Source: a virus (lineage: Duplodnaviria; Heunggongvirae; Uroviricota; Caudoviricetes). Taken from it: a stretch of 64,000 nucleotides of DNA. Numbering within the stretch: the stretch's first letter is position 1; every line of letters begins with the position of its first letter. The DNA lies in the IMG/VR virus record IMGVR_UViG_3300009164_000055; one strand, written 5' to 3'. A program made the translations under genes and the position numbers. Below are positions 5,555-58,645 of this stretch, in pieces. The notes under the pieces are model-generated. The model saw only the letters and a list, made by a program, of their open reading frames with translations. It had not been told where the DNA came from and did not search any database.

Positions 5555-5584
5555 GCTTCTTGTATTCTACAAGGGGCTTTTTTT
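5555..5584 (+). terminator. rho-independent terminator
   Basis: 10-bp stem GGCTTCTTGTA/TACAAGGGGC then TTTTTTT. Confidence 0.5.
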
Positions 5585-5600
5585 GTATATAGAGGAAAAT

Positions 5601-7217
5601 ATGAGCACACCTGAAAACATTAGAAATAAAGCTTATAGTGCAGCCAGACAACTCGTGAGAAATCGTCTTGCTGAGAGTGCTGGTGCTGCTTATGAAAAGC
5701 TTGGTCCAACTGAAAAGATGAACATTGACAGAGCGATTGAAACAAAGCAAACTCATATTAAAAAGATTGCTCTAAAATTAATTCCACAAATTGCCAATAA
5801 TGAAAAGAAGCGTAAAGATTCATTCACCGCTGGAAGTCCGTTATCGAATAATGGTTCCCCAGAAAAGGGTGATGTTCATGAAGCTCTTAATAAGAAATTC
5901 TCTTTAACAATCAAGTCTACTGAAAAGAAGCCTGAAACCAAGAAGGGTAAGTCACCTCACATCATAGTGCACAATACCTTTGGTGAAGAAGTTGCGCTTG
6001 ATAGTCCAGTATACAAAGCATTACTAAACAAAGCCGAAAAGGCAAATATCGATATTACCATCATTGGCGAAATTTATAATCGTGGTATTTCTGTATGGTA
6101 TGAAGACACAAATGTTTCACAACAACAATACGCATTTGCTCGTGTAAACTCTTTTATCAATAAGGGCAAAACATATTTCAATGAAGATTCAGATTTAGCA
6201 GAAGATTTGCGTAAATGGTTCGATCAGAAATGGGTTCGCATGGACACCAAGGGTAAGATCAAAGGCGACTGTGCTAGAGAAGAAGGTGAAGGCAAACCAA
6301 AGTGTCTTCCAATGGCTCAAGCACAAGCTATGGACCCAAAGGATAGAGCCAAAGCTGCTCGACGTAAGCGTAGAGAAGACCCTGTTGCCGATAGAGAAGG
6401 TAAGGGTGGTAAGCCAATTAATGTTGCAACAGAAGCTGTAAACCCAGCACAACAAGCTGCAATTGCTATTGCTATGAAGAAAGCTGGTAAGAAACCAATA
6501 AAAGAAGAACAGCTTGATGAAAAAAATTCTCCTACCAATCCAACACTTTGGTCAAAAGCGAAGTCTCTTGCTCGTCAAAAGTTTGACGTATACCCATCTG
6601 CTTATGCAAATGGTTGGGCTGCTAAGTGGTATAAATCAAAGGGTGGTGGATGGAATTCTGCTAACGAAGAATTTGTAGATACATCAAAAGGTCTAAATGA
6701 ATCTTTCAACATGGCATTTGACTATCAAGGAAAGCCAACACTGGCTCCTACAGCACATCAATTAATGATGAAAACTCAAGGTGGGTTTGCTCATCACAAT
6801 GATGTTAAAGACGTTATGAACGTCACTGCTATTAAGGAACAGATTGAGAAAGCATTTCAAGCCACCATCCTTGAAGAAGATAAGGATGAGCTATCAATCT
6901 CCATGGACAATCTAATTGATATGGTCAATGAAGCATTTGCTACAATTGAAAATATTAAATCAGCAAATATTGATCGTGATGCATGGTCACAAGCACAAAT
7001 CCTTAAGTTAGAACGCTATATTGAATCGGTTGCTGCATACATCAATAACATGAATGAAACTGTAAGAAGCGGTGAATCACATGGTGTTATCGTTCCTGCA
7101 CATACAATTGTTAGTCAGAAGACAGGACAGTCAATCACTATACCTGCTAAGACAAAGAATGTAAAAAAGAATGATGTTATTCTTCATCCACATGACAATC
7201 CATTCGACGGTAAATGA
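5601..7217 (+). CDS. Lys-rich hypothetical protein (possible virion internal protein)
   Basis: ORF track start (TTG) trimmed to ATG with SD AGAGGAAAAT; 538 aa, low-complexity K/A/E-rich segments. Confidence 0.4.
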   Translation: MSTPENIRNKAYSAARQLVRNRLAESAGAAYEKLGPTEKMNIDRAIETKQTHIKKIALKLIPQIANNEKKRKDSFTAGSPLSNNGSPEKGDVHEALNKKFSLTIKSTEKKPETKKGKSPHIIVHNTFGEEVALDSPVYKALLNKAEKANIDITIIGEIYNRGISVWYEDTNVSQQQYAFARVNSFINKGKTYFNEDSDLAEDLRKWFDQKWVRMDTKGKIKGDCAREEGEGKPKCLPMAQAQAMDPKDRAKAARRKRREDPVADREGKGGKPINVATEAVNPAQQAAIAIAMKKAGKKPIKEEQLDEKNSPTNPTLWSKAKSLARQKFDVYPSAYANGWAAKWYKSKGGGWNSANEEFVDTSKGLNESFNMAFDYQGKPTLAPTAHQLMMKTQGGFAHHNDVKDVMNVTAIKEQIEKAFQATILEEDKDELSISMDNLIDMVNEAFATIENIKSANIDRDAWSQAQILKLERYIESVAAYINNMNETVRSGESHGVIVPAHTIVSQKTGQSITIPAKTKNVKKNDVILHPHDNPFDGK

Positions 7218-10930: not shown

Positions 10931-11533
10931 ATGAGCCAATTGGGCATGATCGATAGAGCAAATAACTCACCACTTTTTGCTGCATCACTAGTAAACTTAA
11001 CACCATCTGCTGCTAATGCAAACAATGTTTTTGGTAACACAACTTTTGGTGTGTTCCTTAATAATGGCGTTGCAATGAAAAAGGCATTTGGTACATTCGG
11101 CATTAGTACTGTTGAAGCGGGTAATACTGTTTCTGGTGGTACGAAGGCAGCACACGCTGGTTGGAATACAAGAACAGCATTCACTGGTTATCTTGCAACT
11201 CTCACTGTTGCTACTGTAGGTAAGCTCTACACAAACGGTGATATCGTTACAGTAGCTCCTAGTGGTGGTACTCTAGTCAGTTCCAATGCTACTGCTGTTA
11301 TTACAACCAATGCATCAGGTAATATCGTTTCAACATCAATCACATCAGGCGGTGCTGGATTTATTACAGCAGCACCTACAGCTATCACTGTAGCGAACTC
11401 AACTGGTGGTGCAACAACTGGTAGTAACGCAGTATTTACTGCTGTTGCTGGTGGTCGTGCAGGACGTGTTCAGCTAGAGACTTTAGTTGCCGCTGGTTCA
11501 ATCACTGGTGATGGTGACGGAACATTATTCTAA
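10931..11533 (+). CDS. Ala/Thr/Gly-rich hypothetical structural protein
   Basis: 200 aa, low-complexity ATGS-rich; SD GGAGAAG. Confidence 0.4.
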   Translation: MSQLGMIDRANNSPLFAASLVNLTPSAANANNVFGNTTFGVFLNNGVAMKKAFGTFGISTVEAGNTVSGGTKAAHAGWNTRTAFTGYLATLTVATVGKLYTNGDIVTVAPSGGTLVSSNATAVITTNASGNIVSTSITSGGAGFITAAPTAITVANSTGGATTGSNAVFTAVAGGRAGRVQLETLVAAGSITGDGDGTLF

Positions 11534-20876: not shown

Positions 20877-21197
20877 ATGAAGAAATCTAAAACTTCTCTT
20901 TTTACTGAGAGAAATAAAGCGTCCTATTCTGGTGTTATTGAAGGTAGTACTTGGCGACACTACAAAGGAACAATATATAGAGTAACTGACATTGCATTTG
21001 ATTGTGATACAAATGCAATGTTGGTTGTATATCAGGTCGAAGATGAGTATGAAAAGGAATATCCATTCAGCTTTTCTAGACCATATAGTCAATGGCACGA
21101 TGAAGTTGAAGAAGGCGTTAGACGCTTTGAGCAGGTTGATGCCAGAACACTATACATGACAGATAAAGAATATTGTGATTATCATAGGAGTAAATGA
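20877..21197 (+). CDS. hypothetical protein
   Basis: 106 aa. Confidence 0.35.
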   Translation: MKKSKTSLFTERNKASYSGVIEGSTWRHYKGTIYRVTDIAFDCDTNAMLVVYQVEDEYEKEYPFSFSRPYSQWHDEVEEGVRRFEQVDARTLYMTDKEYCDYHRSK

Positions 21198-26889: not shown

Positions 26890-27198
26890 ATGCCGATATA
26901 TTCTGTCCACAATACAGAAACAGATGAGCCAGAAGAAGACTTCTGGGGATCGTGGGATGCTCTTCAAACATATCTTGAAGAGCATCCACATCTACGACAA
27001 ACAATTACCGCACCCAACTTTGTTTCTGGGGTAGCAGGTATCACCCATAAAAATGACAGTGGATTTAAAGATATGCTTTCACGCATATCTGATGCTAACC
27101 CACATTCACCTCTTGCTCAAACACATGGCAAAAAGGGTGTCAAAGAAACTAAAACTAGAGAGGCTGTGAACAAAGCAAGAGCAAAACAGCCTTACTAG
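26890..27198 (+). CDS. hypothetical protein
   Basis: 102 aa. Confidence 0.35.
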   Translation: MPIYSVHNTETDEPEEDFWGSWDALQTYLEEHPHLRQTITAPNFVSGVAGITHKNDSGFKDMLSRISDANPHSPLAQTHGKKGVKETKTREAVNKARAKQPY

Positions 27199-30224: not shown

Positions 30225-30420
30225 TATGATCCCCTATAAAATCTTTAACGCTCCTGTCGATCCAAAGTGGCCAGACTATGGTTGCAACATCTACAAGGAT
30301 GAAGTCTTTGTTGAAGGTCGAATCTATTCCAACTATAGCGGAAACGCCATGATGGATGAAATGAAAGACCTTAAGAGATATGAATTCAAACCTGAAGATG
30401 GATACAAGATAGAATGGTAA
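30217..30420 (+). CDS. small hypothetical protein
   Basis: 67 aa. Confidence 0.35.
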   Translation: MNDMIPYKIFNAPVDPKWPDYGCNIYKDEVFVEGRIYSNYSGNAMMDEMKDLKRYEFKPEDGYKIEW

Positions 30421-30425
30421 AGAAC

Positions 30426-30456
30426 TCCCTCAGAGAAATCTGGGGGATTTTTTTTT
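30426..30456 (+). terminator. rho-independent terminator with GAAA tetraloop and T9
   Basis: TCCCTCAGA-GAAA-TCTGGGGGA then TTTTTTTTT. Confidence 0.65.
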
Positions 30457-30459
30457 ATG

Positions 30460-30488
30460 TTGACACGAATCACAAATGATTATATAAT
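30460..30488 (+). promoter_or_regulatory. early-type promoter TTGACACGAATCACAAATGATTA-TATAAT (P1)
   Basis: perfect -35/-10 consensus, 17 nt spacer, directly after terminator. Confidence 0.55.
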
Positions 30489-32325: not shown

Positions 32326-32502
32326 ATGACTGAAGGTTTGATCAGAATTGAACATCACATGTACAAGTCTTGGATTCGTGAGAATCCAGAGATTGCTATG
32401 CGTAGGATGATGGAACATCATAATAAGATGATGGGCCTTGGTATGATGGTTCGTGTCGAAGAAGACGAACATTATTATGATGTAATTGGAGAAAAGATGT
32501 GA
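32326..32502 (+). CDS. small hypothetical protein
   Basis: SD AAGGA upstream of ATG. Confidence 0.3.
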   Translation: MTEGLIRIEHHMYKSWIRENPEIAMRRMMEHHNKMMGLGMMVRVEEDEHYYDVIGEKM

Positions 32503-33626
32503 ACTACGATTTCCCTATCATCAATAACATTAGTGACGTGCTTCCTGCTATTGAAGGTAGGGATGAGTTCACTGTGGCCGTCAAGGAAGGCTACACTGTC
32601 ATCAACTATAACGTGATGATGAGTGATACCTTTGACTGCCCCATTCGCCGTGAGTGTCGTGGTATCATCTTCGACACTGCTTCTGGTGATATCATTCGCC
32701 GTCCCTTCCAAAAGTTCTTCAACGTGAATGAGCGTGAAGAAACTCAGGATCATGTGGTCGATCTATCACGTCCTCACGCTATCCTTGAGAAGCTTGATGG
32801 TTCAATGATAGCACCTTTCATTGTGAATGGTCAAATGATCTGGGGTACGAAGATGGGCGCTACTGACGTGGCAAAGCCTGTTGAGGAGTTTGTGAAGAAC
32901 AATCCAGATTATCAATTTTTAGCTGAAGAAGCTATTAGCTATGGTTATACTCCAATCTTCGAATGGTGCTCTCGTAAGCAGCGTATCGTTCTTGATTATC
33001 AGGAAGACCAATTAATTCTCACTGCTGTTCGAAATATGACAACTGGTAATTATGCTTTTTTTAAGGCATGGAATCATCTTGTTCCTTTGGTTCGTGAATT
33101 CGATCCACAGACTGACATGAAGGAATTCATTGAGTATGTTCGTGGTCTAGAAGACCTAGAAGGCTTCGTGGTTCGTTTTGATGATGGCCATATGATCAAG
33201 CTGAAGTGTGATTGGTATGTCCAAATTCACAAGGCGAAGGAAGCTATTCTACAGGATCGCAACATCGTTGAGTTGATCCTTGACGATAAGTTGGACGATA
33301 TCAAGGCGCACCTTCCTGCTGAAGATCGTGATCGCCTGACTTACTTCGAGTCTCAGATTAACAGTCGTATTCTTGATAGGTCTGCTCATCTTTCTGATGC
33401 AACAAATACTGAACAGGATTTGGGTGATCGTAAATATTTTGCTCTAAACCGTGCACAAGAATATAACTCATATTCTAAGGCGATTGTGTTTGCTCTTTGG
33501 GATGACAATTCTTATGAGCGTTCTTCAGAATTGGTTCGTAGAACTGTTCGTAATAATCTTGGTCGTACTACCAAGTGGGAAGAGTTGCGTGATCATTGGT
33601 TTGAGGGAGTAACTTATAATGGATGA
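32499..33626 (+). CDS. rnlA: RNA ligase 1 (T4 RnlA type)
   Basis: ECRGIIFD, QKFFNVNERE and nucleotidyl-lysine motif KLDGSM parallel T4 Rnl1 ECRGIMFE/KFFNLNE/KEDGSL; 375 aa. Confidence 0.75.
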   Translation: MNYDFPIINNISDVLPAIEGRDEFTVAVKEGYTVINYNVMMSDTFDCPIRRECRGIIFDTASGDIIRRPFQKFFNVNEREETQDHVVDLSRPHAILEKLDGSMIAPFIVNGQMIWGTKMGATDVAKPVEEFVKNNPDYQFLAEEAISYGYTPIFEWCSRKQRIVLDYQEDQLILTAVRNMTTGNYAFFKAWNHLVPLVREFDPQTDMKEFIEYVRGLEDLEGFVVRFDDGHMIKLKCDWYVQIHKAKEAILQDRNIVELILDDKLDDIKAHLPAEDRDRLTYFESQINSRILDRSAHLSDATNTEQDLGDRKYFALNRAQEYNSYSKAIVFALWDDNSYERSSELVRRTVRNNLGRTTKWEELRDHWFEGVTYNG

Positions 33627-37691: not shown

Positions 37692-38654
37692 ATGTCTCAT
37701 GAACTTGAAATGCTCAATGGCGTTGCTCAGATGGCTTACGCTGGTGAAACCCCTTGGCACGGTCTTGGTGTTAAGGTTTCGAATGACCTTACCCCTGATC
37801 AGATGCTTAAGGCTGCTGGTCTTGATTGGTCGGTTAGCAAGGCTCCTGCCTTCGTCAACATCGATGGTGAACAGGTTGATATTGGCCGTTCGGCACTGAT
37901 CCGCAACACGGACAACAGCATTCTGGATATCGTCTCTGACGATTGGAACCCTTGCCAGAACACTGAAGCTTTCGAATTCTTCAATGACTTCGTTGCTGCT
38001 GGTGACATGGAAATGCACACTGCTGGTTCGCTCAAGGACGGCAAGATTGTTTGGGCTTTGGCTAAGGTCAAGGATAGCTTCGAACTCTTTGGTGGTCGTG
38101 ATCAGGTCGATGCTTACCTGCACTTCACCAATCCTCACCAGTATGGTCAGTCGATTGACGTTCGCTTCACTCCAATTCGTGTTGTGTGCAACAACACCTT
38201 GACCCTCTCGCTCAACATGAAGAGCAAAAATATGGTCAAGATCAGCCATGCACGTCAGTTTGACGGTGACATGGTGAAGGAAGCTCTTGGCGTTGCCAAG
38301 GAAAAGCTGAGCACCTACAAGGAAATGGCTCAGTACCTGTCGCAGAAGCGTTTCAGCAATGAGAACATTGTTGACTACTTCAAGCGTGTCTTCCCTGTTG
38401 TTACGACTAAGGAAGAAGCAAAGAAGGAACTGTCCCTCAATGCACGTACCGCTCTAGAAGCCCTCCACATCCAGCCTGGTGCTGAACTTGGCGAAGGTAC
38501 ATGGTGGCAAGCTTTTAACGCTGTGACCTTCATGACCGATCACGTCATGGGTCGTACCGCTGACAACCGCCTCCACAACGCATGGTACGGTGTCAACAAG
38601 AACCTTAAGACCAAGGCTCTTCAGACCGCTGTAGAGATGGCTGAAGCATCCTAA
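37692..38654 (+). CDS. DUF932-family protein (MxHELE...TPWHGLG N-terminus)
   Basis: 320 aa; conspicuously GC-rich codon usage vs genome, suggesting horizontal acquisition. Confidence 0.45.
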   Translation: MSHELEMLNGVAQMAYAGETPWHGLGVKVSNDLTPDQMLKAAGLDWSVSKAPAFVNIDGEQVDIGRSALIRNTDNSILDIVSDDWNPCQNTEAFEFFNDFVAAGDMEMHTAGSLKDGKIVWALAKVKDSFELFGGRDQVDAYLHFTNPHQYGQSIDVRFTPIRVVCNNTLTLSLNMKSKNMVKISHARQFDGDMVKEALGVAKEKLSTYKEMAQYLSQKRFSNENIVDYFKRVFPVVTTKEEAKKELSLNARTALEALHIQPGAELGEGTWWQAFNAVTFMTDHVMGRTADNRLHNAWYGVNKNLKTKALQTAVEMAEAS

Positions 38655-38660
38655 TTGGAA

Positions 38661-38688
38661 GGGGGGAGAAATCCCCCCAACCTTTTTT
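38661..38688 (+). terminator. rho-independent terminator GGGGGG-AGAAAT-CCCCCC + T6
   Basis: perfect G6/C6 stem. Confidence 0.65.
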
Positions 38689-38689
38689 G

Positions 38690-38718
38690 TTGACAGACCT
38701 GATTTACTCAGCTATTGA
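38690..38718 (+). promoter_or_regulatory. promoter TTGACA-N17-TATTGA (P7)
   Basis: directly follows terminator (PeSL-like arrangement). Confidence 0.4.
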
Positions 38719-40249: not shown

Positions 40250-40282
40250 ATACCCTCAGCAGCAATGTCGGGGGTATTTTTT
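40250..40282 (+). terminator. putative terminator
   Basis: ATACCC...GGGTAT stem then TTTTTT. Confidence 0.4.
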
Positions 40283-40295
40283 ATAAAAATAATGC

Positions 40296-40324
40296 TTGAC
40301 TTATTTCTAAAAGTATGTTATAAT
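40296..40324 (+). promoter_or_regulatory. sigma70 consensus promoter TTGACT-N17-TATAAT (P8)
   Basis: exact hexamers. Confidence 0.5.
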
Positions 40325-43659: not shown

Positions 43660-43854
43660 TCATTTTTCTTTTGGAAATATTTCAGGATATCTTTCATACA
43701 TACAGTAATATAATACAGTGCCTCTAAGCTTGCTATAAAATGTTGTCTGTTCTTTACCGTCCATCATACACTCATACTTAGATGGATGTACGTGAACAAT
43801 CCTTGCCTTTAAATCTCCATTATAAAAAATGTAAGCAATCATCCACCAAGTCAT
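43660..43854 (-). CDS. small hypothetical protein, last gene of minus-strand operon
   Basis: ATGA overlap with cyclase stop. Confidence 0.35.
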   Translation of the reverse strand: MTWWMIAYIFYNGDLKARIVHVHPSKYECMMDGKEQTTFYSKLRGTVLYYCMYERYPEIFPKEK

Positions 43855-45905
43855 TTACTGGTAGCACGGTAAACACCGTCCCAATTATTTGGTGCAGACT
43901 TTTGCTCATTCATGCGATCTATCATAGCGTTGTAATAGCCAGAAAGTTCACCTTTCCACACTGGTCCCATTTCATAAGCCATAGCTAAAGCTCTACCCCA
44001 TTCACCAGTACGATAATAATTTAAAAATTTATTATGAGCTTTTTCTGCTGCACTATCTTTCTTTTCAACCACAGTATAAATCTTTACTGGTTCTGTCTTG
44101 CCCTTAACAGCAATGAGGTCCAGTTCAATTATTTGGTATACATCCCTAACCAATTCGGCAGTTTCTGGCCCAATAATGAGTTTGACTCCATAAGGCTTGG
44201 ATTGACCTTCCAAACGAGAAGCCAGATTAACGCCATCCCCCAAGCAAGTATAGTCAAAACGCTGATCACTGCCCATATTACCAACAACCACAGTGGCAGT
44301 GTTAATACCAAGACCCATCCCAAAAGCGGGTACACCTTCTCTTGTAACTTCATCATTAAATTCCTTTAGTGAGTTTAGCATCTGGAATGCAGTCTTCACA
44401 GCATCTAGAGCATGTTGTTCATTGTTTAGTGGTGCATTCCAGAATGCCATCTGAGCGTCACCGATATACTTATCAAGCGTTCCTTTGTTCTCTAGGATTG
44501 CCTTTGTCATGGCAGTCATGTAGCGATTCATGATCTTAGTTAAACCTTGAACGTCTCTTCCATAGTGTTCTGAGATTGTTGTGAAGCCACGAACGTCTGT
44601 GAACATGATAGAGAGCTTTTGCTCTGTTCCACCTAGCTGTAGCAAGTCTGGTTGCTTTTGCAACTGTGCAACAAGGTCTGGTGACAGATATGTACCAAAC
44701 TGTTTCTTGATTTGTTGCTTCTGAAGGAATTCTGAGATATAATTGACGATGTTGACATGTAGGTATATAAGAATCATTGATCCAATAATGAAACTTGAAT
44801 CAAGTAGAATTTTATAATGTTCCATCGCATAGTATGGTGCATATACAGCCGCTGCTAATAATCCACCTACCCAAACGAATGAGAAGCGTACACGTGAAAG
44901 ACCAATCACCAAAATGCCAAGGGTTAGGAAACCAGCCCATTCCACTAAAGGAACCCATGACGGAATGGAAACGCTTGATCCGTCAAGAAGGGTCTGCAAT
45001 AATGAAGCTTGAATATACTGTGGAGACTTTGCTCCCACAGGAGTTGGAACAGGGTTCTGAATTCCTTCAGCAGTTACGCCAAGAATTACAAACTTATTTT
45101 GAAGAGATGGTAATGGGGAACCAACATCATACTCCTGAAATGCCTTGTTCCAATTTACAAACACTCGACTATAAGGGTCTGTTGAAATTGTATCGTACTG
45201 AGGGACACGAACAGCCTCAACACCTGTCTCATTTATCTTTGCTTGATATGATGTATCACCAGCCGCATTTCGAAGCATCTCAAGAGCAAAAGATGGGTAA
45301 TACTCATTATTTGACATTGCCAAAAGAGGAATACGACGAACAACGCCGTCAACTTCTGGAAGGGTTGATGTTACGCCAATCCCAGAAGCTTTATTTTGGA
45401 CCGTAGCTACGTTATCAAGAATGCATTTATATTGTGGTAGATAATCGGTGGCTTTGCCGTCACCAACAACTGCTACACCTGTACGCTTTGTGTTTGAGTT
45501 ATCTCTAGCGCACTTTTCACTAGCAACTTGAGATAAGACTACAGGATTAGATAAAAGTGATTGTTGTAGATCGGTGTCATGATTGAAGCGATCTGGCTCA
45601 GGATATAGTATGGTAGTACCGACTAAGCCAGCACCGCTGCTGTAAGCGTCATTAATAACCTTAGCATAAACATCTCTTGAGAATGGATACTGCCCATACT
45701 TTTCCAAAGTTTTTTCGGAAATATTGAGCAATACAACATCAGTACTAACAACTTGCTGCTCTGCTACCATCAGGTTATCGTAGAAATTCAAGCGGGTTGA
45801 TTCGATAAGGCGAGGATCAGCTACCTTCAATGTGATCAGAAGAGAAAAAGTAAGTAAAGCTAACCATGGGGACAATAATGTCTTTTTAATTTTGTTGACT
45901 AACAA
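43851..45905 (-). CDS. CHASE2 sensor domain - class III adenylate/guanylate cyclase
   Basis: N-terminal signal/TM + large periplasmic CHASE2-like region + TM cluster, then FTDVRGFTTISEH...GDGVNLASRLE class III cyclase catalytic motifs. Confidence 0.75.
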   Translation of the reverse strand: MLVNKIKKTLLSPWLALLTFSLLITLKVADPRLIESTRLNFYDNLMVAEQQVVSTDVVLLNISEKTLEKYGQYPFSRDVYAKVINDAYSSGAGLVGTTILYPEPDRFNHDTDLQQSLLSNPVVLSQVASEKCARDNSNTKRTGVAVVGDGKATDYLPQYKCILDNVATVQNKASGIGVTSTLPEVDGVVRRIPLLAMSNNEYYPSFALEMLRNAAGDTSYQAKINETGVEAVRVPQYDTISTDPYSRVFVNWNKAFQEYDVGSPLPSLQNKFVILGVTAEGIQNPVPTPVGAKSPQYIQASLLQTLLDGSSVSIPSWVPLVEWAGFLTLGILVIGLSRVRFSFVWVGGLLAAAVYAPYYAMEHYKILLDSSFIIGSMILIYLHVNIVNYISEFLQKQQIKKQFGTYLSPDLVAQLQKQPDLLQLGGTEQKLSIMFTDVRGFTTISEHYGRDVQGLTKIMNRYMTAMTKAILENKGTLDKYIGDAQMAFWNAPLNNEQHALDAVKTAFQMLNSLKEFNDEVTREGVPAFGMGLGINTATVVVGNMGSDQRFDYTCLGDGVNLASRLEGQSKPYGVKLIIGPETAELVRDVYQIIELDLIAVKGKTEPVKIYTVVEKKDSAAEKAHNKFLNYYRTGEWGRALAMAYEMGPVWKGELSGYYNAMIDRMNEQKSAPNNWDGVYRATSK

Positions 45906-46947
45906 TTATGCTACTCCCGCCATCGTTTAATTGAATAATATTTGTTTTTCCATTATCAGTGAATGATATATTTAGGTTTGATGTTTTTTCTGTAAGGATC
46001 GATGCCGTATTGTTTTGAATTCTAGTAAACTGGATAGTAACCTGTTCAACAAATGTGTATATCTTTGTTGTGCTATCAAGACCAAAATTTGTACCAATCA
46101 ATCGAATATTATCTTTAGTAACTTCTCCACCTTCAGAATATGTTAAATCATCCTCAAAAAAGTTTACATCAAGTCTATTGATACTAAGATCATTGTCGTT
46201 GATATCATTCTTTTCAAGTTCATCGTTCTTTAGGAAGTCAATATCTAGTTCTGATAGATCAAGAATATTGGCTCTTTTATCAACTATATCCTGTTGTTTA
46301 ACCACATCTGGTGGAGACACGATCAACATATTGTCGATCATGCTTAGGTCTAGGTTGAGAATGACAGGTTTTGTTGGTGGTGTATCAGCCGTCAGAACAA
46401 TAGTTGATTGAAAGGCTTTATCTAAAATAACAGTCCCTGCACTATTCGACACAGTAATCTGCCCAACATGACCGTTTTCTTCTGGTAGAAGAATAAACAG
46501 GCTCTTACCCATTTCATCTACGGTTGTTGTGAAATCTGTTCCTCTAACCGCTATGGTAGCAGTAGGAGTTTTAAGGTTGATACCTTTCTTACCCATGGAA
46601 CCAGTTACGAACCTAGCAGTACCTGAAGCAAATCGAAGATTCATCTTTCCTTTACTAGCATCGCCATCATAAACAAAATCATCGATCACAAGCTTTGATT
46701 GTTCTGTGAGTTTAACCTTAGTGTTGTCAACAAATGTTATTTCGATGCGACCATTACCAGTACGCACGTTATCCATTTTTTGCACAGGTAAGCGAGGCTG
46801 TGTAGGAATTTTTTGTGTTTTCCTAACAACCTCGCTTGGTCCTCTTAGCTCAGTAACACTGCCAATATTAGCAGTTGCCGCTATTGCATTGTGTGATGTT
46901 AATAATACCACCAGTAGCAGTAGTATTAAGTTTAATCGTATCCACAT
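45886..46947 (-). CDS. FecR-domain periplasmic protein
   Basis: signal peptide; FecR-like beta domain (GSVTELRGPSEV..., MGKSLFILLPEENGHVG); start overlaps curlin gene by ~80 nt so start codon uncertain. Confidence 0.5.
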   Translation of the reverse strand: MWIRLNLILLLLVVLLTSHNAIAATANIGSVTELRGPSEVVRKTQKIPTQPRLPVQKMDNVRTGNGRIEITFVDNTKVKLTEQSKLVIDDFVYDGDASKGKMNLRFASGTARFVTGSMGKKGINLKTPTATIAVRGTDFTTTVDEMGKSLFILLPEENGHVGQITVSNSAGTVILDKAFQSTIVLTADTPPTKPVILNLDLSMIDNMLIVSPPDVVKQQDIVDKRANILDLSELDIDFLKNDELEKNDINDNDLSINRLDVNFFEDDLTYSEGGEVTKDNIRLIGTNFGLDSTTKIYTFVEQVTIQFTRIQNNTASILTEKTSNLNISFTDNGKTNIIQLNDGGSSIIVSQQN

Positions 46948-47572
46948 TCAATGTACTCTTCTGATCGATATTAATAGTATTCAATGAACCTAGTACGTTC
47001 ATATCGATGTTCTTACCAGCATAACCAGTTTGAGTAGTTGTAATGGTATTTTGATCACCAGTTACGTTTATTGTATTGGTAACATCATCTGTATTGATAT
47101 TTGCCAGTAATGTATTATAGTCTCCTGAGATTACATAATTCAGAAGAGCATTTGTTGCTGATGAATAATCACCATGATTAAATGTTGTTTTATTGTTATC
47201 ACCAGTAATTGTCATATTTTGGGTTGTACCTGCAACAGAAGCACTACTGCCTGTGTTGAAGATATTTTCGTTAGAATTACCAGTAATATTAAGGTTATAA
47301 TTCACACCAGATGCATTTGTTATACGTCCAGTAAGAATGTTGTTTGAACCAGTTTGAGTAATAGTGATATCTTGTGAGTTTCCTTCAAGATTAAATCTAT
47401 TATTTTCAGAACCGATCTTATTATCTTGGCCTGTTTGCGTTACTGTTATCTTACTTGTTTCGCCTACTTGCTCAATATAGATTGCGTTTGGATTTGCAAT
47501 CGCTGTGGATGAAATCATGACCATCAAGAGTGATAACATCTTGATTTTCTTTAACATATCTTTTAACTCCAA
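46868..47572 (-). CDS. curlin-repeat (CsgA/CsgB-like) secreted protein
   Basis: signal peptide then imperfect repeats TVTQTGQDNKIGS / ITITQTGSNNILTG / MTITGDNNKTT / INVTGDQNTITTTQTGYAGKN resembling S-x5-Q-x-G-x-G-N curlin repeats. Confidence 0.5.
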   Translation of the reverse strand: MELKDMLKKIKMLSLLMVMISSTAIANPNAIYIEQVGETSKITVTQTGQDNKIGSENNRFNLEGNSQDITITQTGSNNILTGRITNASGVNYNLNITGNSNENIFNTGSSASVAGTTQNMTITGDNNKTTFNHGDYSSATNALLNYVISGDYNTLLANINTDDVTNTINVTGDQNTITTTQTGYAGKNIDMNVLGSLNTINIDQKSTLNVDTIKLNTTATGGIINITQCNSGNC

Positions 47573-48330
47573 TATCCCTTAATTCTGCCTTGTTTGATTA
47601 GTTCGACTACTGCCGCTTCAATTGTCATCTTAACCGCAATCGTGTTTGCTTCATTTTCGGTTATACCTACTTCTGTTTCAACAAGTTTGGTTCCTACATC
47701 AATAAATTTAAATAATGTAAAGTCTGTACCAGTTGAAAGGATTGTTTTTGAAACCTGTACGTTCATAATGACTTCGCCAGTGTTTGTTGAAACCGCCCTT
47801 AGTGCTACTGTTACTTGGTCTTTGCGATATTTTGTGCTTGAACCGATACCAAGATATCTGGCTCCAGCACCACCAGTAACAATATTGGTATCGTAACCAA
47901 TAATGCCACCTTGAATCATTATTCCTGCAAAGACTAAAGGTTCAAGCTTATTAGCGCCTTCACCTTGGTATTCTTCACGAGTTTGACGAACAATTTGACG
48001 TTCTTTAGTAAGATCGTCTATTCTTTGACGTTCGACAACTCTAAACCACTTTCCACGTCCAGCATTTTTCAATGCATCAATTAATAAACTTGTTCCGCCT
48101 TGAGTTACGGAAGTTGAAAATGTCGCTACACCATCTTTATCTTTTCTTTGACCTGTAAGATCAGGAAAGTCATACACAGCTACTACTGCTGGCATTTGTG
48201 GTGGTCTAATATCTAACAGTGGCTTATATGCCACACTATCAACAACAGGTAAATTTCTGTTGAAGTCATGTAGAGCAGGGGTTGCACAACCACCTAGCAA
48301 TAGTAATAATGCTAAACCTATGCTTTTCAT
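47563..48330 (-). CDS. csgG: curli production assembly/transport lipoprotein CsgG
   Basis: lipobox LLGGC; long blocks align with E. coli CsgG (VAVYDFPDLTGQ..., FSTSV...LLIDALK, MIQGGIIGYDTNIVTGGAGARYLGIGSSTKY...SKTILS...FKFID). Confidence 0.85.
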   Translation of the reverse strand: MKSIGLALLLLLGGCATPALHDFNRNLPVVDSVAYKPLLDIRPPQMPAVVAVYDFPDLTGQRKDKDGVATFSTSVTQGGTSLLIDALKNAGRGKWFRVVERQRIDDLTKERQIVRQTREEYQGEGANKLEPLVFAGIMIQGGIIGYDTNIVTGGAGARYLGIGSSTKYRKDQVTVALRAVSTNTGEVIMNVQVSKTILSTGTDFTLFKFIDVGTKLVETEVGITENEANTIAVKMTIEAAVVELIKQGRIKGYWS

Positions 48331-48854
48331 TAGAATTTAAATGACCCTGCTGTTGGAATGGTGATTGAAGTTGATGTACCATCTGGCTGTGTTATTGTCA
48401 GTGTTATACCATTTAAGTCTTTTTGAAATGCAACGGTATTTCCATCAAGCTCAAAGGTTCCTGAATCCTGTGCGTTTGGACCGAAAAGACTATCTGTCAG
48501 TTGTTTGGCTAGTTGAGAATATATACGAGACTGCAAATTGGTCATGAATTTGTTCATGATTGAATTTTGCTCAGCTTGAACTGCTGCTTTCAAATCTGAT
48601 TCAATTTTGTCTTGAATTGTTTTACGTCTGGTTGCTTCTTGATTTTCAATTGTTAACCAATGTGCAGAAGTGCCAACTCCACTAAATGAAGGGCTTTTGA
48701 ATTGCTGAACAATTTCTGTGGAATGTGCAGGACTACTTAGAAACAGTAGGCTTGCTAGTATCAGGCTCTTTCTTAGCAACTTCTTCTTCCTTTTTCTTTT
48801 TATTATTTTCAGAAGAAAGATCGAATTCAAGTTTGAAGATTTTGATGATTTCAA
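48330..48854 (-). CDS. csgF: CsgF-like curli assembly protein
   Basis: signal peptide then EIVQQFKSPSFSG (cf. CsgF TMTFQFRNPNFGG) and C-terminal ITLTITQPDGTSTSITIP (cf. LNVTDRKTGQTSTIQVSG). Confidence 0.55.
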   Translation of the reverse strand: MKSSKSSNLNSIFLLKIIKRKRKKKLLRKSLILASLLFLSSPAHSTEIVQQFKSPSFSGVGTSAHWLTIENQEATRRKTIQDKIESDLKAAVQAEQNSIMNKFMTNLQSRIYSQLAKQLTDSLFGPNAQDSGTFELDGNTVAFQKDLNGITLTITQPDGTSTSITIPTAGSFKF

Positions 48855-49401: not shown

Positions 49402-49673
49402 GCTTATATTTATGCAAATGGCATCTTTGTATGTAGCATACGAAAAAAAAAAAGTTGACAATCCATTTTTTTCTGCTATTTGCGTCTCAACTTGTATAAA
49501 TAAATGTAAGAAACTATTTACTAAGAAAGACTTAAAGTGCAACTCACCTATCAACCCATTATGAAAGATATGAAACCAGCCAGTTCATTCGAACATGGCC
49601 GCTTTGCGTCTGTCAATAATGGTGCGTGGACAGATGAGATGTAACTGAAGTACGACATAAGTATAACTTGTCA

Positions 49674-49705
49674 AGCTTCGGTCCACAAAACCGGAGCTTT
49701 TTTTT
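49674..49705 (+). terminator. rho-independent terminator AGCTTCGG...CCGGAGCT + T8
   Basis: 8-bp stem incl. one G-U, then TTTTTTTT. Confidence 0.55.
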
Positions 49706-49716
49706 ATGATAGTGGG

Positions 49717-49744
49717 TTGACACTGATGGAACGAAACGTATAAT
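49717..49744 (+). promoter_or_regulatory. sigma70 consensus promoter TTGACA-N16-TATAAT driving tRNA array
   Basis: 12 nt upstream of first tRNA. Confidence 0.55.
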
Positions 49745-57066: not shown

Positions 57067-57699
57067 ATGAAAACTTTTAGTGCATTTATTTCAGAAGAGC
57101 GTGAGAACAATACACGTAAGACACAGGTTGCCACAACTGGTGGTACCTATAGAAAGACAGGCGAATTCCTTAAGGATAAGCTTGCTCCTAAGTCAAAGAT
57201 CATCAGCATTGGTGCTGGTCTAGATCAAACACGTGAGGGTCTTCGTGCTGGTCTTGGTGACGGTCATACTATTGATGATCATGAACCAAATCCTGAAGGA
57301 CGTAAGACCAAGCCTGAATTCACAGATGCATCACGTATTCCAAAGAACGGATATGATGCTGCTGTATCACACAATGTTTTAAATGTTGTTGAACCACATG
57401 TACGTGAACAGGTTATGCATTCGATCTTTAATTCCGTCAAGGAAGGTGGTCATGCTATTATCGGTACACGTAAGTGGAGTGGTGATATCAACACCAACAA
57501 GAACTTTGAAAAGGGCGATGAACCTAAATCAATGTGGGTCAAGAAGGGTAATGCCACATCATATCAAAAGGGATTTGATGGTAACGAACTAAAGGACTAC
57601 GTTGAAGACTATGCAAAGCGCAATGGTCATCAGGTTGAAGTCAAGAAGGTTCCATTAGCAGCCAATGGCGTACATATAAAAATTATAAAAAAGGGTTGA
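57067..57699 (+). CDS. methyltransferase-like Rossmann protein with CTS-like N-terminus (MKTFSAFISEE)
   Basis: IISIGAGLD (motif I-like), DAAVSHNVL, EGGHAIIG. Confidence 0.4.
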   Translation: MKTFSAFISEERENNTRKTQVATTGGTYRKTGEFLKDKLAPKSKIISIGAGLDQTREGLRAGLGDGHTIDDHEPNPEGRKTKPEFTDASRIPKNGYDAAVSHNVLNVVEPHVREQVMHSIFNSVKEGGHAIIGTRKWSGDINTNKNFEKGDEPKSMWVKKGNATSYQKGFDGNELKDYVEDYAKRNGHQVEVKKVPLAANGVHIKIIKKG

Positions 57700-58085
57700 T
57701 GATGAAAAGTTTATCACAATTCATTGCAGAATCTTTATTTAGCGGCGAACATGTATTACAGCATTTCAACAATACCCATCATGAGCATGGACAAAATCCT
57801 GAGATGGAAAAATATATAAAAAATACAAAGTTTAAACTCACTAAAATACATCCTGACAAACTTCCAAGCGAAGAGAGTTTATGGGATAAAGACGATCCAT
57901 TTCATAGAGTTGTTGATATCGATAATGATACCGTCAAAAAGAATGAAATGAGAATTGATGCTGGTAAAAAATTACCACCAATTATCATGGGTAAAGGTGC
58001 CATAATCGATGGTCATCACAGGGCTTTAGCAGCAAAAAATAAAAATAAACATATTGATGCATATGTCCCTGTAGAAAAGGGTTGA
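57699..58085 (+). CDS. ParB-like nuclease-domain protein with CTS-like N-terminus (MMKSLSQFIAES)
   Basis: GAIIDGHHRALAAK DGHHR motif; paralogous in domain content to 40640..41107. Confidence 0.5.
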   Translation: MMKSLSQFIAESLFSGEHVLQHFNNTHHEHGQNPEMEKYIKNTKFKLTKIHPDKLPSEESLWDKDDPFHRVVDIDNDTVKKNEMRIDAGKKLPPIIMGKGAIIDGHHRALAAKNKNKHIDAYVPVEKG

Positions 58086-58110
58086 CACCCACCTCATAAT
58101 TGCATACTAT
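58082..58110 (+). promoter_or_regulatory. promoter TTGACA-N17-TACTAT
   Basis: precedes SD GGAGG and arfA-like ORF. Confidence 0.4.
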
Positions 58111-58136
58111 AAGTTCATAAGCGATGGAGGAAAGTC

Positions 58137-58283
58137 ATGAAATCACGTAATCCAATAGCCCGATCACTTCGCAGTGCACATCTTAAGCCTAAGATTGTAC
58201 GTGCAAAGAAGGGTAAAGGTTCTTATCGCCGTAGCAACAAAAAAATTGCTACGGCGGTTGACTCTTTTCTCCGTATTGCTTAA
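58137..58283 (+). CDS. ArfA-like alternative ribosome-rescue factor candidate (48 aa)
   Basis: PIARSLRSAHLKPKIVRAKKGKGSYRR parallels E. coli ArfA [27 protein letters not shown] including the KGKGS motif; strong SD GGAGG. Confidence 0.4.
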   Translation: MKSRNPIARSLRSAHLKPKIVRAKKGKGSYRRSNKKIATAVDSFLRIA

Positions 58284-58312
58284 TAAAATTTGAGATAAAC
58301 GGAGATTGTATT

Positions 58313-58645
58313 ATGACAGATTGTTATTGGTATCAGCGTGGAAAGTATCAGCAATTGGCTGAAGCTCTTCAGAGCCGTATTCCTATGCAGGGTGAGATTG
58401 CTAATAAGGATGAAAATCCCAAGCTTGAAGAGTATCGTAAGGTTTCTAACCAGTACTACGATCTTTTCAACAACGGACTGCATAATCAACCATATCACTT
58501 CAAGCGCCGTTTTGGTGTAACTGTTGTGGAAGCTCGTTCCATTCTTCGTGTTGGTGGTATCCTTGAGTGTGATATTCTTCGCACCATTGAAGCTAGCGTA
58601 GATCAGTTCATTCTTGAAGCTGCTGCTGAACAAGGATTAATTTAA
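58313..58645 (+). CDS. hypothetical protein
   Basis: 110 aa, SD GGAG. Confidence 0.4.
   Translation: MTDCYWYQRGKYQQLAEALQSRIPMQGEIANKDENPKLEEYRKVSNQYYDLFNNGLHNQPYHFKRRFGVTVVEARSILRVGGILECDILRTIEASVDQFILEAAAEQGLI

Follow-up and report, generated by a model that had tools for sequence, protein, structure and literature searches.

ArfA is usually described as a reserve factor for ribosome rescue in gamma- and some betaproteobacteria. The subject of this report is a phage member of that family, an arfA-like gene at positions 58137..58283 (+ strand) of a 64,000-nucleotide stretch of DNA, here called the window, from a virus of the Caudoviricetes (IMG/VR virus record IMGVR_UViG_3300009164_000055). 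In this locus, a large, tRNA-rich phage carries a bona fide ArfA together with the type of hairpin that ties the production of bacterial ArfA to an overload of transfer-messenger RNA (tmRNA).

In bacterial arfA, a stem-loop within the open reading frame (ORF) is cleaved by RNase III or terminates transcription, generating a non-stop mRNA; the truncated ArfA made from this mRNA is tagged by tmRNA and degraded unless trans-translation is saturated, while full-length bacterial ArfA is unstable owing to its hydrophobic C-terminus (PMC3989581, PMC8012679). The KKGKGSY segment of Escherichia coli ArfA occupies the empty mRNA channel (PMC5378476, PMC6299226). Within the N-terminal part of the E. coli protein, Leu19, Leu24, and Phe25 touch release factor 2 (RF2) at Trp319, Val198, and Phe217; Ala18 packs in the core of a minidomain, and the substitution A18T abolishes release but spares RF2 binding; Pro23 touches A1492/A1493, and helix 44 (h44) is bound by Thr7 and Lys8 (PMC5378476).

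ArfA has already been annotated in phages, both by the Joint Genome Institute (JGI) and in two phage-genome papers (PMC8953757, PMC12753301). In these papers, gp30 of pelagiphage HTVC027P is described as an ArfA whose transcription is high both at early and at late stages of infection (PMC12753301), and g10 of Citromicrobium phage RXM is likewise described as ArfA (PMC8953757); neither a functional test nor non-stop regulation is given in either one. In a literature search, no functional work on a phage ArfA turned up, nor any remark on phage copies keeping or losing the non-stop hairpin. The gene alone is an already annotatable homologue and demonstrates no new mechanism; the points of interest are its regulatory hairpin and its subtype, in which Arg stands for the Ala18 of E. 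coli.

A Phage Member of the ArfA Family

The ORF consists of 48 codons followed by TAA, and its product is MKSRNPIARSLRSAHLKPKIVRAKKGKGSYRRSNKKIATAVDSFLRIA. An earlier, sequence-only reading of this DNA had proposed an ArfA-like rescue factor here on the strength of the peptide NPIARSLRSAHLKPKIVRAKKGKGSYRR, which is indeed present exactly within the product, and the proposed kinship has held up well on comparison with the family. The window protein scores 27.3 bits (E 2.4e-6) with the Pfam ArfA model, PF03889, for which the gathering cut-off is 25.5, and the same model is matched by all 22 proteins in a set of phage relatives (best E 1.3e-11) that comprises 17 sequences from IMG/VR contigs, three from isolated phages, the metagenomic outgroup P0005, and the window protein itself. 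Comparison by hhalign of these 22 with 10 gammaproteobacterial ArfAs, E. coli included, gives a probability of 98.4% and an E of 4.4e-15 over 39 columns. With the E. coli ArfA chains in the PDB, 31 residues align without a gap (N5-K35 with N14-K44), and the spacing from the Asn to KKGKGSY is identical. A protein that is 98% identical, P0001, has been named 'stalled ribosome alternative rescue factor ArfA' by JGI, and the only PHROGs match is to an unannotated family, phrog_20887. Membership in the ArfA family is secure at the level of sequence.

The conserved core, N5-R32 (NPIARSLRSAHLKPKIVRAKKGKGSYRR; 58149..58232), corresponds to N14-R41 of E. coli ArfA. Within it, the KKGKGSY motif (K24-Y30; 58206..58226) is invariant as a whole in the close clade, and K25, G26, G28, and S29 are invariant across all aligned relatives. 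The basic segment KKGKGSYRR (K24-R32) is joined by K35 and K36. The channel-binding half of ArfA is conserved in these residues, and binding itself would follow by homology. The N-terminal part is of another kind. The phage-type sequence (R)NP(I/V)A(K/R)xL shows strong conservation of its own (N5 and A8 do not vary, and P6 hardly does), and most phage family members have Lys or Arg at the position of Ala18, a residue invariant in 10 of 10 gammaproteobacterial ArfAs. Because this N-terminus is conserved and is common to chromosomal alphaproteobacterial copies, it reads as a distinct ArfA subtype with a putative release-factor interface, not as a degenerate copy.

A word-indexed protein search gave five close relatives, and wider diversity came from pattern scans of viral and genome contigs, which place relatives on at least 266 viral contigs in IMG/VR. 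Four proteins that are 83-98% identical are encoded on metagenomic phage contigs with the gene order of the window: GapR, a 210-amino-acid (aa) ORF, sometimes a 127-aa ORF, arfA, a 110-aa ORF, and then a glycosyltransferase. Over codons 1-32, synonymous and non-synonymous codon differences stand at 11:1 to relative L011, 9:1 to L009, and 7:2 to a third relative, a pattern that points to clear purifying selection on the protein.

The signals for expression are conserved as well. A GGAGG Shine-Dalgarno (SD) sequence (58126..58130, + strand) lies 6 nt 5' of the ATG, and the SD region, GATGGAGGAAAGT, is retained in 9 of 9 close relatives, differing only in the outgroup L013. Upstream of it is a sigma-70-type promoter (58082..58110, + strand), in which the -35 hexamer TTGACA (58082-58087) and the -10 hexamer TACTAT (58105-58110) are separated by a 17-nt spacer. 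This site, a 10/12 match, is the joint best within the 4.5-kb region scanned, and both hexamers are retained in nine relatives despite a diverging spacer. The window has 30 copies of the sequence GTTGACA, where 11.4 would be expected. Thus, a 48-aa ORF with a strong SD and a promoter of its own, as the sequence-only reading had it, is confirmed, and the interval of 58082-58283 that it gave runs accurately from the promoter through the stop codon.

A Hairpin within the Reading Frame

Inside the ORF lies a hairpin that the earlier reading had missed. Detected by a terminator scan and by folding, it has a perfect 13-bp stem, AUCGCCGUAGCAA / UUGCUACGGCGGU, and an 8-nt loop (58225..58258, + strand; codons Y30-V41). 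The stem begins in the Tyr30 codon of KGKGSY and finishes in Val41, 22 nt before the stop. Below it, AAAGG pairs with UCUUU (the top pair being G.U) and UC with GA, which lengthens the structure to a helix of about 20 bp with small internal loops (58215..58267, + strand), and this interrupted helix resembles the E. coli RNase III substrate, the 12+8-bp helix of arfA. The energy of the hairpin is -24.3 kcal/mol (z -6.5 relative to dinucleotide shuffles), and among roughly 12,800 40-nt segments of the + strand it ranks third in stability. Five others at the top of this ranking (3672, 30410, 38636, 40560, and 43310) are terminators at gene ends, each a GC-rich stem with a T-run. Rfam has no match at the hairpin, which is therefore not a described RNA family.

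The hairpin is not imposed by the amino-acid sequence, because only 1 of 2000 synonymous resamples drawn from phage codon usage was as stable as the native sequence (-26.7 versus -11.0 +/- 3.3 kcal/mol). Permutation of codons within the region (117/2000) was uninformative, as too few of them are interchangeable.

Among relatives, the pairing is maintained as the sequence changes. Across six distinct members of the clade, 95.6% of the pair cells hold standard pairs, compared with 36-62% when the 3' partners are slid by 1-3 columns. Two-sided changes are found at pair 18-37 (UA/UG/CG) and pair 20-35 (AU/GU/GC), a third pair goes from U.G to C-G, and a 6-nt deletion trims the tips of both arms together. 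A compensating change in the 3' arm alters Thr39 to Ala; the corresponding 5'-arm change is synonymous. Non-synonymous changes and indels concentrate in codons 33-48, as would be expected if the constraint on these codons acts at the level of the RNA and not of the protein. The tail, D42-A48 (DSFLRIA) plus TAA (58260..58283, + strand), is the most variable part of the protein among relatives and is predicted to be rarely translated. In L018, a 78-kb IMG/VR contig, the arfA stop has been replaced (GCATAT for GCTTAA), giving an in-frame fusion to the 110-aa gene (1489-2004; 171 aa) that retains the hairpin plus the SD and ATG of the downstream gene. If translation rarely passes the hairpin, this loss of the stop would be tolerable; the observation rests on one contig, in which a sequencing error is possible.

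Another candidate structure, a second hairpin (CUCCGU...ACGGAG) in which the downstream gene would have its SD masked, was rejected when its pairing was found not to be kept in relatives.

Hairpin-Bearing and Short Forms in Other Phages

The association of the motif with RNA structure extends beyond the close clade. In 26 non-redundant phage lineages, folding is more stable in the 76 nt that begin slightly ahead of the motif's end than in the 76 nt upstream (Wilcoxon p 0.005); z is below -2 in seven of the 26, and the hairpin of the window is the strongest. In-ORF intrinsic terminators are unmistakable in L021, L025, L026, L028, and L095. Other lineages have at most eight codons past the motif and no hairpin: Caulobacter phage Cr30, pelagiphage HTVC027P, L013, and L020. 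These short forms are potentially constitutive, and the window gene, judged from its sequence, is of the hairpin-bearing, regulated type. The two phage designs offer a natural comparison of regulated with unregulated rescue factors. ArfA-like ORFs without annotation are present in the deposited records of Cr30 (L014 1501-1596; KF301602.1 11142-11237) and of Erythrobacter phage vB_EliS-L02 (OL955261.1 144110-144205).

A further arrangement is seen in seven contigs (L041, L043, L044, L052, L066, L071, and L094), in which the ArfA module and hairpin are followed by an in-frame tail of 70-115 aa containing GNYTKPTMRKRLFxxIKAGGKGGAPGQWSARKAQ. In these, the hairpin might give two products from one ORF.

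The C-terminal ends form another side observation. Full-length gammaproteobacterial ArfA (L098-L131) ends in ...ESYL(I/M/K)AA, the window protein in FLRIA (58266-58280), and a relative in LRAA. The first of these we take to resemble the terminus of the ssrA tag in E. coli (...ENYALAA), and the C-terminal end of ArfA may be a built-in degron for the read-through product.

A Model for Regulated Synthesis and Its Alternatives

The sequences show membership of the family, purifying selection, and a hairpin whose position is conserved along with its pairing; cleavage or termination at the hairpin, tagging by tmRNA, a release-factor partner, and a benefit to the phage are inferred. In the explanation that seems best, which is probable but well short of certain, the gene encodes a phage ArfA-family rescue factor made from non-stop mRNA and gated by the tmRNA capacity of the host. 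Host RNA polymerase would transcribe arfA from its sigma-70-type promoter, and the GGAGG sequence would provide efficient translation. The stem-loop after the KGKGSY codons would end the mRNA before the stop, through either an RNase III cut of the ~20-bp helix or premature termination, and the ArfA peptide would itself be a non-stop product, roughly 31-44 residues long; an mRNA ending within the 5' arm is predicted to yield about 31-34 residues, and one ending just past the stem about 42-44. Host tmRNA would tag and destroy this peptide while trans-translation capacity is spare. ArfA would accumulate only under tmRNA saturation, such as might arise when broken mRNAs pile up in the infected cell. 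By homology, KKGKGSYRR would enter the vacant mRNA channel of ribosomes that have stalled at 3' ends of truncated mRNAs; less certainly, the conserved N-terminal segment RNPIARSLRSAHL would bring in a class-1 release factor of the host, with RF2 the likeliest, and the peptidyl-tRNA would be hydrolysed. On the rare occasions of read-through, the product would be the 48-aa form with FLRIA at its end, possibly unstable like the full-length bacterial protein. If the regulation is as in bacteria, the phage would be reading host quality control as a gauge of translational damage and adding rescue capacity only when it is needed.

A number of points weigh against this model. RF2, tmRNA, and RNase III are assumed to be present in the host. 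Cleavage by RNase III is a guess from the length of the helix alone, and the GGCGGU of the hairpin is followed by UGACUCUUUU and not by an immediate T-run as in the phage's own terminators, which makes the efficiency of termination doubtful. Comparable hairpins lie inside other ORFs of the window (at 11410, 19228, 31686, and 55860), and in the test for covariation, which had six closely related sequences to work with, 27 of 500 shuffles reach the observed score. A product cut in the 5' arm would have 1-4 residues past Tyr30, compared with the 13-16 past Tyr39 in mature E. coli ArfA (52-55 aa). ArfA takes up its fold only on the ribosome, in the presence of RF2. The residues for recruitment of RF2, which the sequence-only reading had singled out for a check, give a mixed answer. 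In the ungapped alignment, only Phe25->Leu16 and Leu20->Leu11 (E. coli->phage) are conservative; Ala18->Arg9, Leu19->Ser10, Pro23->Ala14, and Leu24->His15 are not conserved, E. coli residues 1-9, including Thr7 and Lys8, have no counterpart, and Ile11 is also listed among the positions lacking one. An RF2-activating minidomain of the E. coli type is not found in the window protein. This divergence of the N-terminus makes an RF2 interface like that of E. coli less certain, but it does not weaken the case for homology to the family.

It might instead be supposed that the full 48-aa protein is the functional product, synthesised each time the promoter is active, and that the hairpin is no more than a 3' stabiliser, an ordinary terminator overlapping the 3' part of arfA by chance, or a processing site at which RNase III cuts arfA apart from the gene downstream and the tRNAs. 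The sequence-only reading had come to such a constitutive factor from the ordinary stop codon. That argument fails because the control of bacterial arfA lies in the in-ORF hairpin, not in the stop codon: E. coli arfA also has an ordinary stop, and the stem-loop is present and conserved here. Still, the normal TAA is in keeping with a constitutive protein, as are the fairly similar tails of the closest relatives, AVD(S/F)(F/L)LRIA, and the lack of an immediate T-run at the hairpin, and other phages and SAR11 have short forms that end in ordinary stops and carry no hairpin, which indicates that an unregulated design is viable. However, the 13-bp stem finishes 22 nt short of the stop codon, so that any 3' end formed there is non-stop by construction. 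The same placement of the hairpin recurs in independent phage and bacterial arfA lineages, the tail gathers non-synonymous changes and indels while the pairing persists, and L018 is without the stop codon altogether. Constitutive synthesis is thus considered unlikely, although it is the strongest of the alternatives.

Doubts about the N-terminus lead to a different alternative, in which the protein binds ribosomes but is not an RF2-dependent rescuer. Its tail would lie in the mRNA channel, and its N-terminus would recruit another factor (RF1 as well as RF2, like ArfT) or none at all; in the latter case, the peptide would compete with the tail of SmpB and block trans-translation, for instance to stop the tagging of phage proteins or to blunt a tmRNA-linked host response. 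Replacement of Ala18 by Arg, polar residues at two of the three positions of the hydrophobic patch, and the missing nine N-terminal residues are consistent with this idea, and the conserved phage N-terminus implies a specific partner that is not necessarily an E. coli-type RF2 surface. However, the same NPxA(K/R) N-terminus is present in chromosomal, terminator-bearing alphaproteobacterial genes, which are better explained by a bona fide rescue subfamily; an inhibitor of tmRNA that is degraded by tmRNA would be self-defeating at low levels; and the literature search found no experimental precedent. Such a binder seems improbable, more so than a constitutive factor. A far weaker proposition is that the ORF arose by chance, with an accidental match to KGKGS in non-coding DNA, a coincidence that the sequence-only reading had itself allowed for in so short a motif. 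With only 48 codons, weak pairwise phmmer E values (0.5-0.8) against the PDB ArfA chains, and no model matched in NCBIfam, the case could be made. It is opposed by the PF03889 score above the gathering cut-off, the profile-profile match, the 11:1 excess of synonymous differences, the conserved promoter and SD, and the number of viral contigs with relatives, and it is effectively refuted, with hardly any probability left to it.

A bolder reading can also be put forward, if only as a long shot. Here the phage and alphaproteobacterial NPxA(K/R) proteins would be a functionally distinct branch of ArfA that engages the release factor or the ribosome differently, with the hairpin as a sensor of tmRNA saturation in the host; the branch might accept RF1 as well as RF2, or compete with SmpB-tmRNA. 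If this is true, the factor would be switched on when infection or an RNA-cleaving defence breaks mRNAs, rescue capacity would be a contested resource in the conflict between phage and host, and ArfA-type rescue would reach far beyond the beta- and gammaproteobacteria, the range of current surveys. In any case, the diverged N-terminus, with Arg at Ala18, could reveal release-factor recruitment outside the E. coli paradigm. Two further suggestions of the sequence-only reading, that the phage cleaves host mRNAs or tRNAs and that the factor bypasses a tmRNA-dependent defence, find no direct support here.

Genome Context and Other Features

Directly 3' of arfA, throughout the phage clade, is an ORF of 110 aa with no assigned function (58313..58645, + strand) and a GGAG SD of its own; it has no match in Pfam or PHROG. 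Directly past the hairpin and ahead of this gene is the invariant sequence GGTTGACT (58258..58286, + strand), with a possible -35, TTGACT (58258-58263), and -10, TAATAA (58281-58286). The distance from TTGACT to the ATG of the 110-aa gene is 55 nt, the same as from the arfA -35 to the arfA ATG. It can be suggested, with low confidence given the poor -10, that GGTTGACT holds a weak promoter for the downstream gene. Some small weight may also be given to the idea that the arfA transcription unit finishes at the hairpin, so that the final codons of the gene overlie the next promoter. Elsewhere in the phage, a GC-rich terminator hairpin and T-run are followed at once by a (G)TTGAC(A/T) promoter at 30410-30465, 38636-38695, 40250-40301, and 49670-49722, with the junctions at 30460, 38690, 40296, and 49717 and a good -10 in three of the four.

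On the other side, the arfA -35 overlaps the TGA stop of a 129-aa ORF (57696-58085) that is found in only some relatives and has no match in Pfam or PHROG. Its IIDGHHR motif we take to resemble ParB/sulfiredoxin-type domains. For the neighbouring ORFs of 210, 127, 110, 87, and 76 aa, Pfam and PHROG give nothing informative beyond a weak ribbon-helix-helix (RHH) match.

The phage is large, with a G+C content of about 39%. It is tRNA-rich, as the sequence-only reading had said, although the count of 19 given there is not reproduced; ARAGORN finds 18 tRNA genes, located between 49.7 and 63.7 kb. The window also encodes both subunits of ribonucleotide reductase, a T4 Rnl1-type RNA ligase (32499-33626), a TET-associated glycosyltransferase, GapR, a UvrD helicase, and a GP88-like protein. 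The ribonucleotide reductase and GP88-like proteins point loosely to phages of proteobacteria. Searched at near identity, the DNA of the arfA region has no match among INPHARED phages; tblastn with the 849-aa ORF likewise gave no match, and none of the isolated phages is a close relative. In Caulobacter phage Cr30, an RNA ligase (L014 2018-3096) is encoded about 400 nt downstream of the ArfA-like ORF; together, the ligases of the window and of Cr30 hint at a shared theme of translation repair, RNA repair with ribosome rescue.

Other features lie apart from this locus. A minus-strand island (43851-48854) in an otherwise plus-strand region codes for a 684-aa protein that joins a CHASE2 sensor to an adenylate/guanylate cyclase domain, and then for a FecR-domain protein, an unusual signalling cargo for a phage. 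A 544-aa ORF (5583-7217) has a weak match to DUF5872, below the gathering score. Two hairpins with perfect stems of 12-13 bp and no T-run, at 26951-26990 (GGATGCTCTTCAA...TTGAAGAGCATCC) and 20983-21025 (ACATTGCATTTG...CAAATGCAATGT), are among the most stable structures of the window and may be further RNA-processing sites.

Comparison with Known Rescue Factors

The best-known relative is E. coli ArfA (YhdL, PF03889), which is RF2-dependent. The window protein shares with it the KKGKGSY motif and basic tail, the 19-residue spacing from the Asn to the motif, and a hydrophobic or aromatic residue at the position of Phe25. The genes are alike in having a stem-loop of about 20 bp between the motif and an ordinary stop, some 20 nt before the stop; when E. 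coli arfA was folded in the same way as a control, a 12+8-bp helix was recovered between KGKGSY and its ordinary stop codon. In other respects they differ. The window gene has 48 codons rather than 72, its hairpin starts at the Tyr codon of the motif, whereas that of E. coli starts 12 codons later, and its tail lacks the long hydrophobic TTGLLLSGAC. Furthermore, E. coli arfA is antisense to mscL, whereas the window gene is borne by a phage and has its own promoter.

Compared with the ArfAs of Pseudoalteromonas, Colwellia, and Vibrio (L098-L131), the window protein has 15 of 26 residues identical by eye (NALAALVTSKIFKPQIVKAKKGKGSY versus NPIARSLRSAHLKPKIVRAKKGKGSY). In these genes too, the hairpin overlaps the 3' end of the ORF, and the C-terminus is small and non-polar (LIAA versus LRIA in the window). 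Unlike the window protein, they keep a GRGxI(K/R)DN extension and Ala18/Leu19, and the hairpins of Pseudoalteromonas, Vibrio, and Colwellia enclose the stop codon rather than precede it.

The N-terminal signature itself is shared with a group of alphaproteobacterial NPxA(K/R) genes (Rhodospirillales, Thalassospiraceae, and Denitrobaculum) and a Patescibacteria metagenome-assembled genome (L110, L111, L115-L117, L125, and L132), as in NPFARVL... and NPIAKSI.... These genes also have Arg or Lys at the position of Ala18 and an in-ORF hairpin right after KGKGSY(K/R)R. Unlike the window gene, they carry textbook terminators with long T-runs, and they are chromosomal. The literature search found no functional data on this subtype. 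A 2024 survey reported arfA in 0 of 2,376 alphaproteobacterial genomes (PMC11633108). Genomes of SAR11/Pelagibacteraceae (L097, L101, L102, L107-L109, L112-L114, L120, and L130) nevertheless contain a 38-aa ArfA-like form with an ordinary stop and no hairpin, and other Alphaproteobacteria (L111, L115-L117, L125, and L132) with genomes of the Rhodospirillales type have ArfA-like genes bearing in-ORF terminators. The distribution of the ArfA family looks underestimated.

Among phages, HTVC027P gp30 and RXM g10 are, like the window gene, small ORFs that match PF03889. Unlike the window gene, HTVC027P gp30 ends with an ordinary stop seven codons after the motif and has no hairpin, and is therefore potentially unregulated.

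Finally, BrfA of Bacillus subtilis and ArfT of Francisella are also small, release-factor-dependent rescue peptides. The brfA gene has an in-ORF terminator and is under trans-translation control (PMC6881298), and ArfT has a KGKGS-like basic segment (PMC6299226). ArfT differs in that it has no regulation through non-stop mRNA and can use RF1. In evolutionary terms, both are counted as separate from ArfA, whereas the window protein is clearly homologous to ArfA, and because of its strong match to the ArfA profile, a separate origin is unnecessary.

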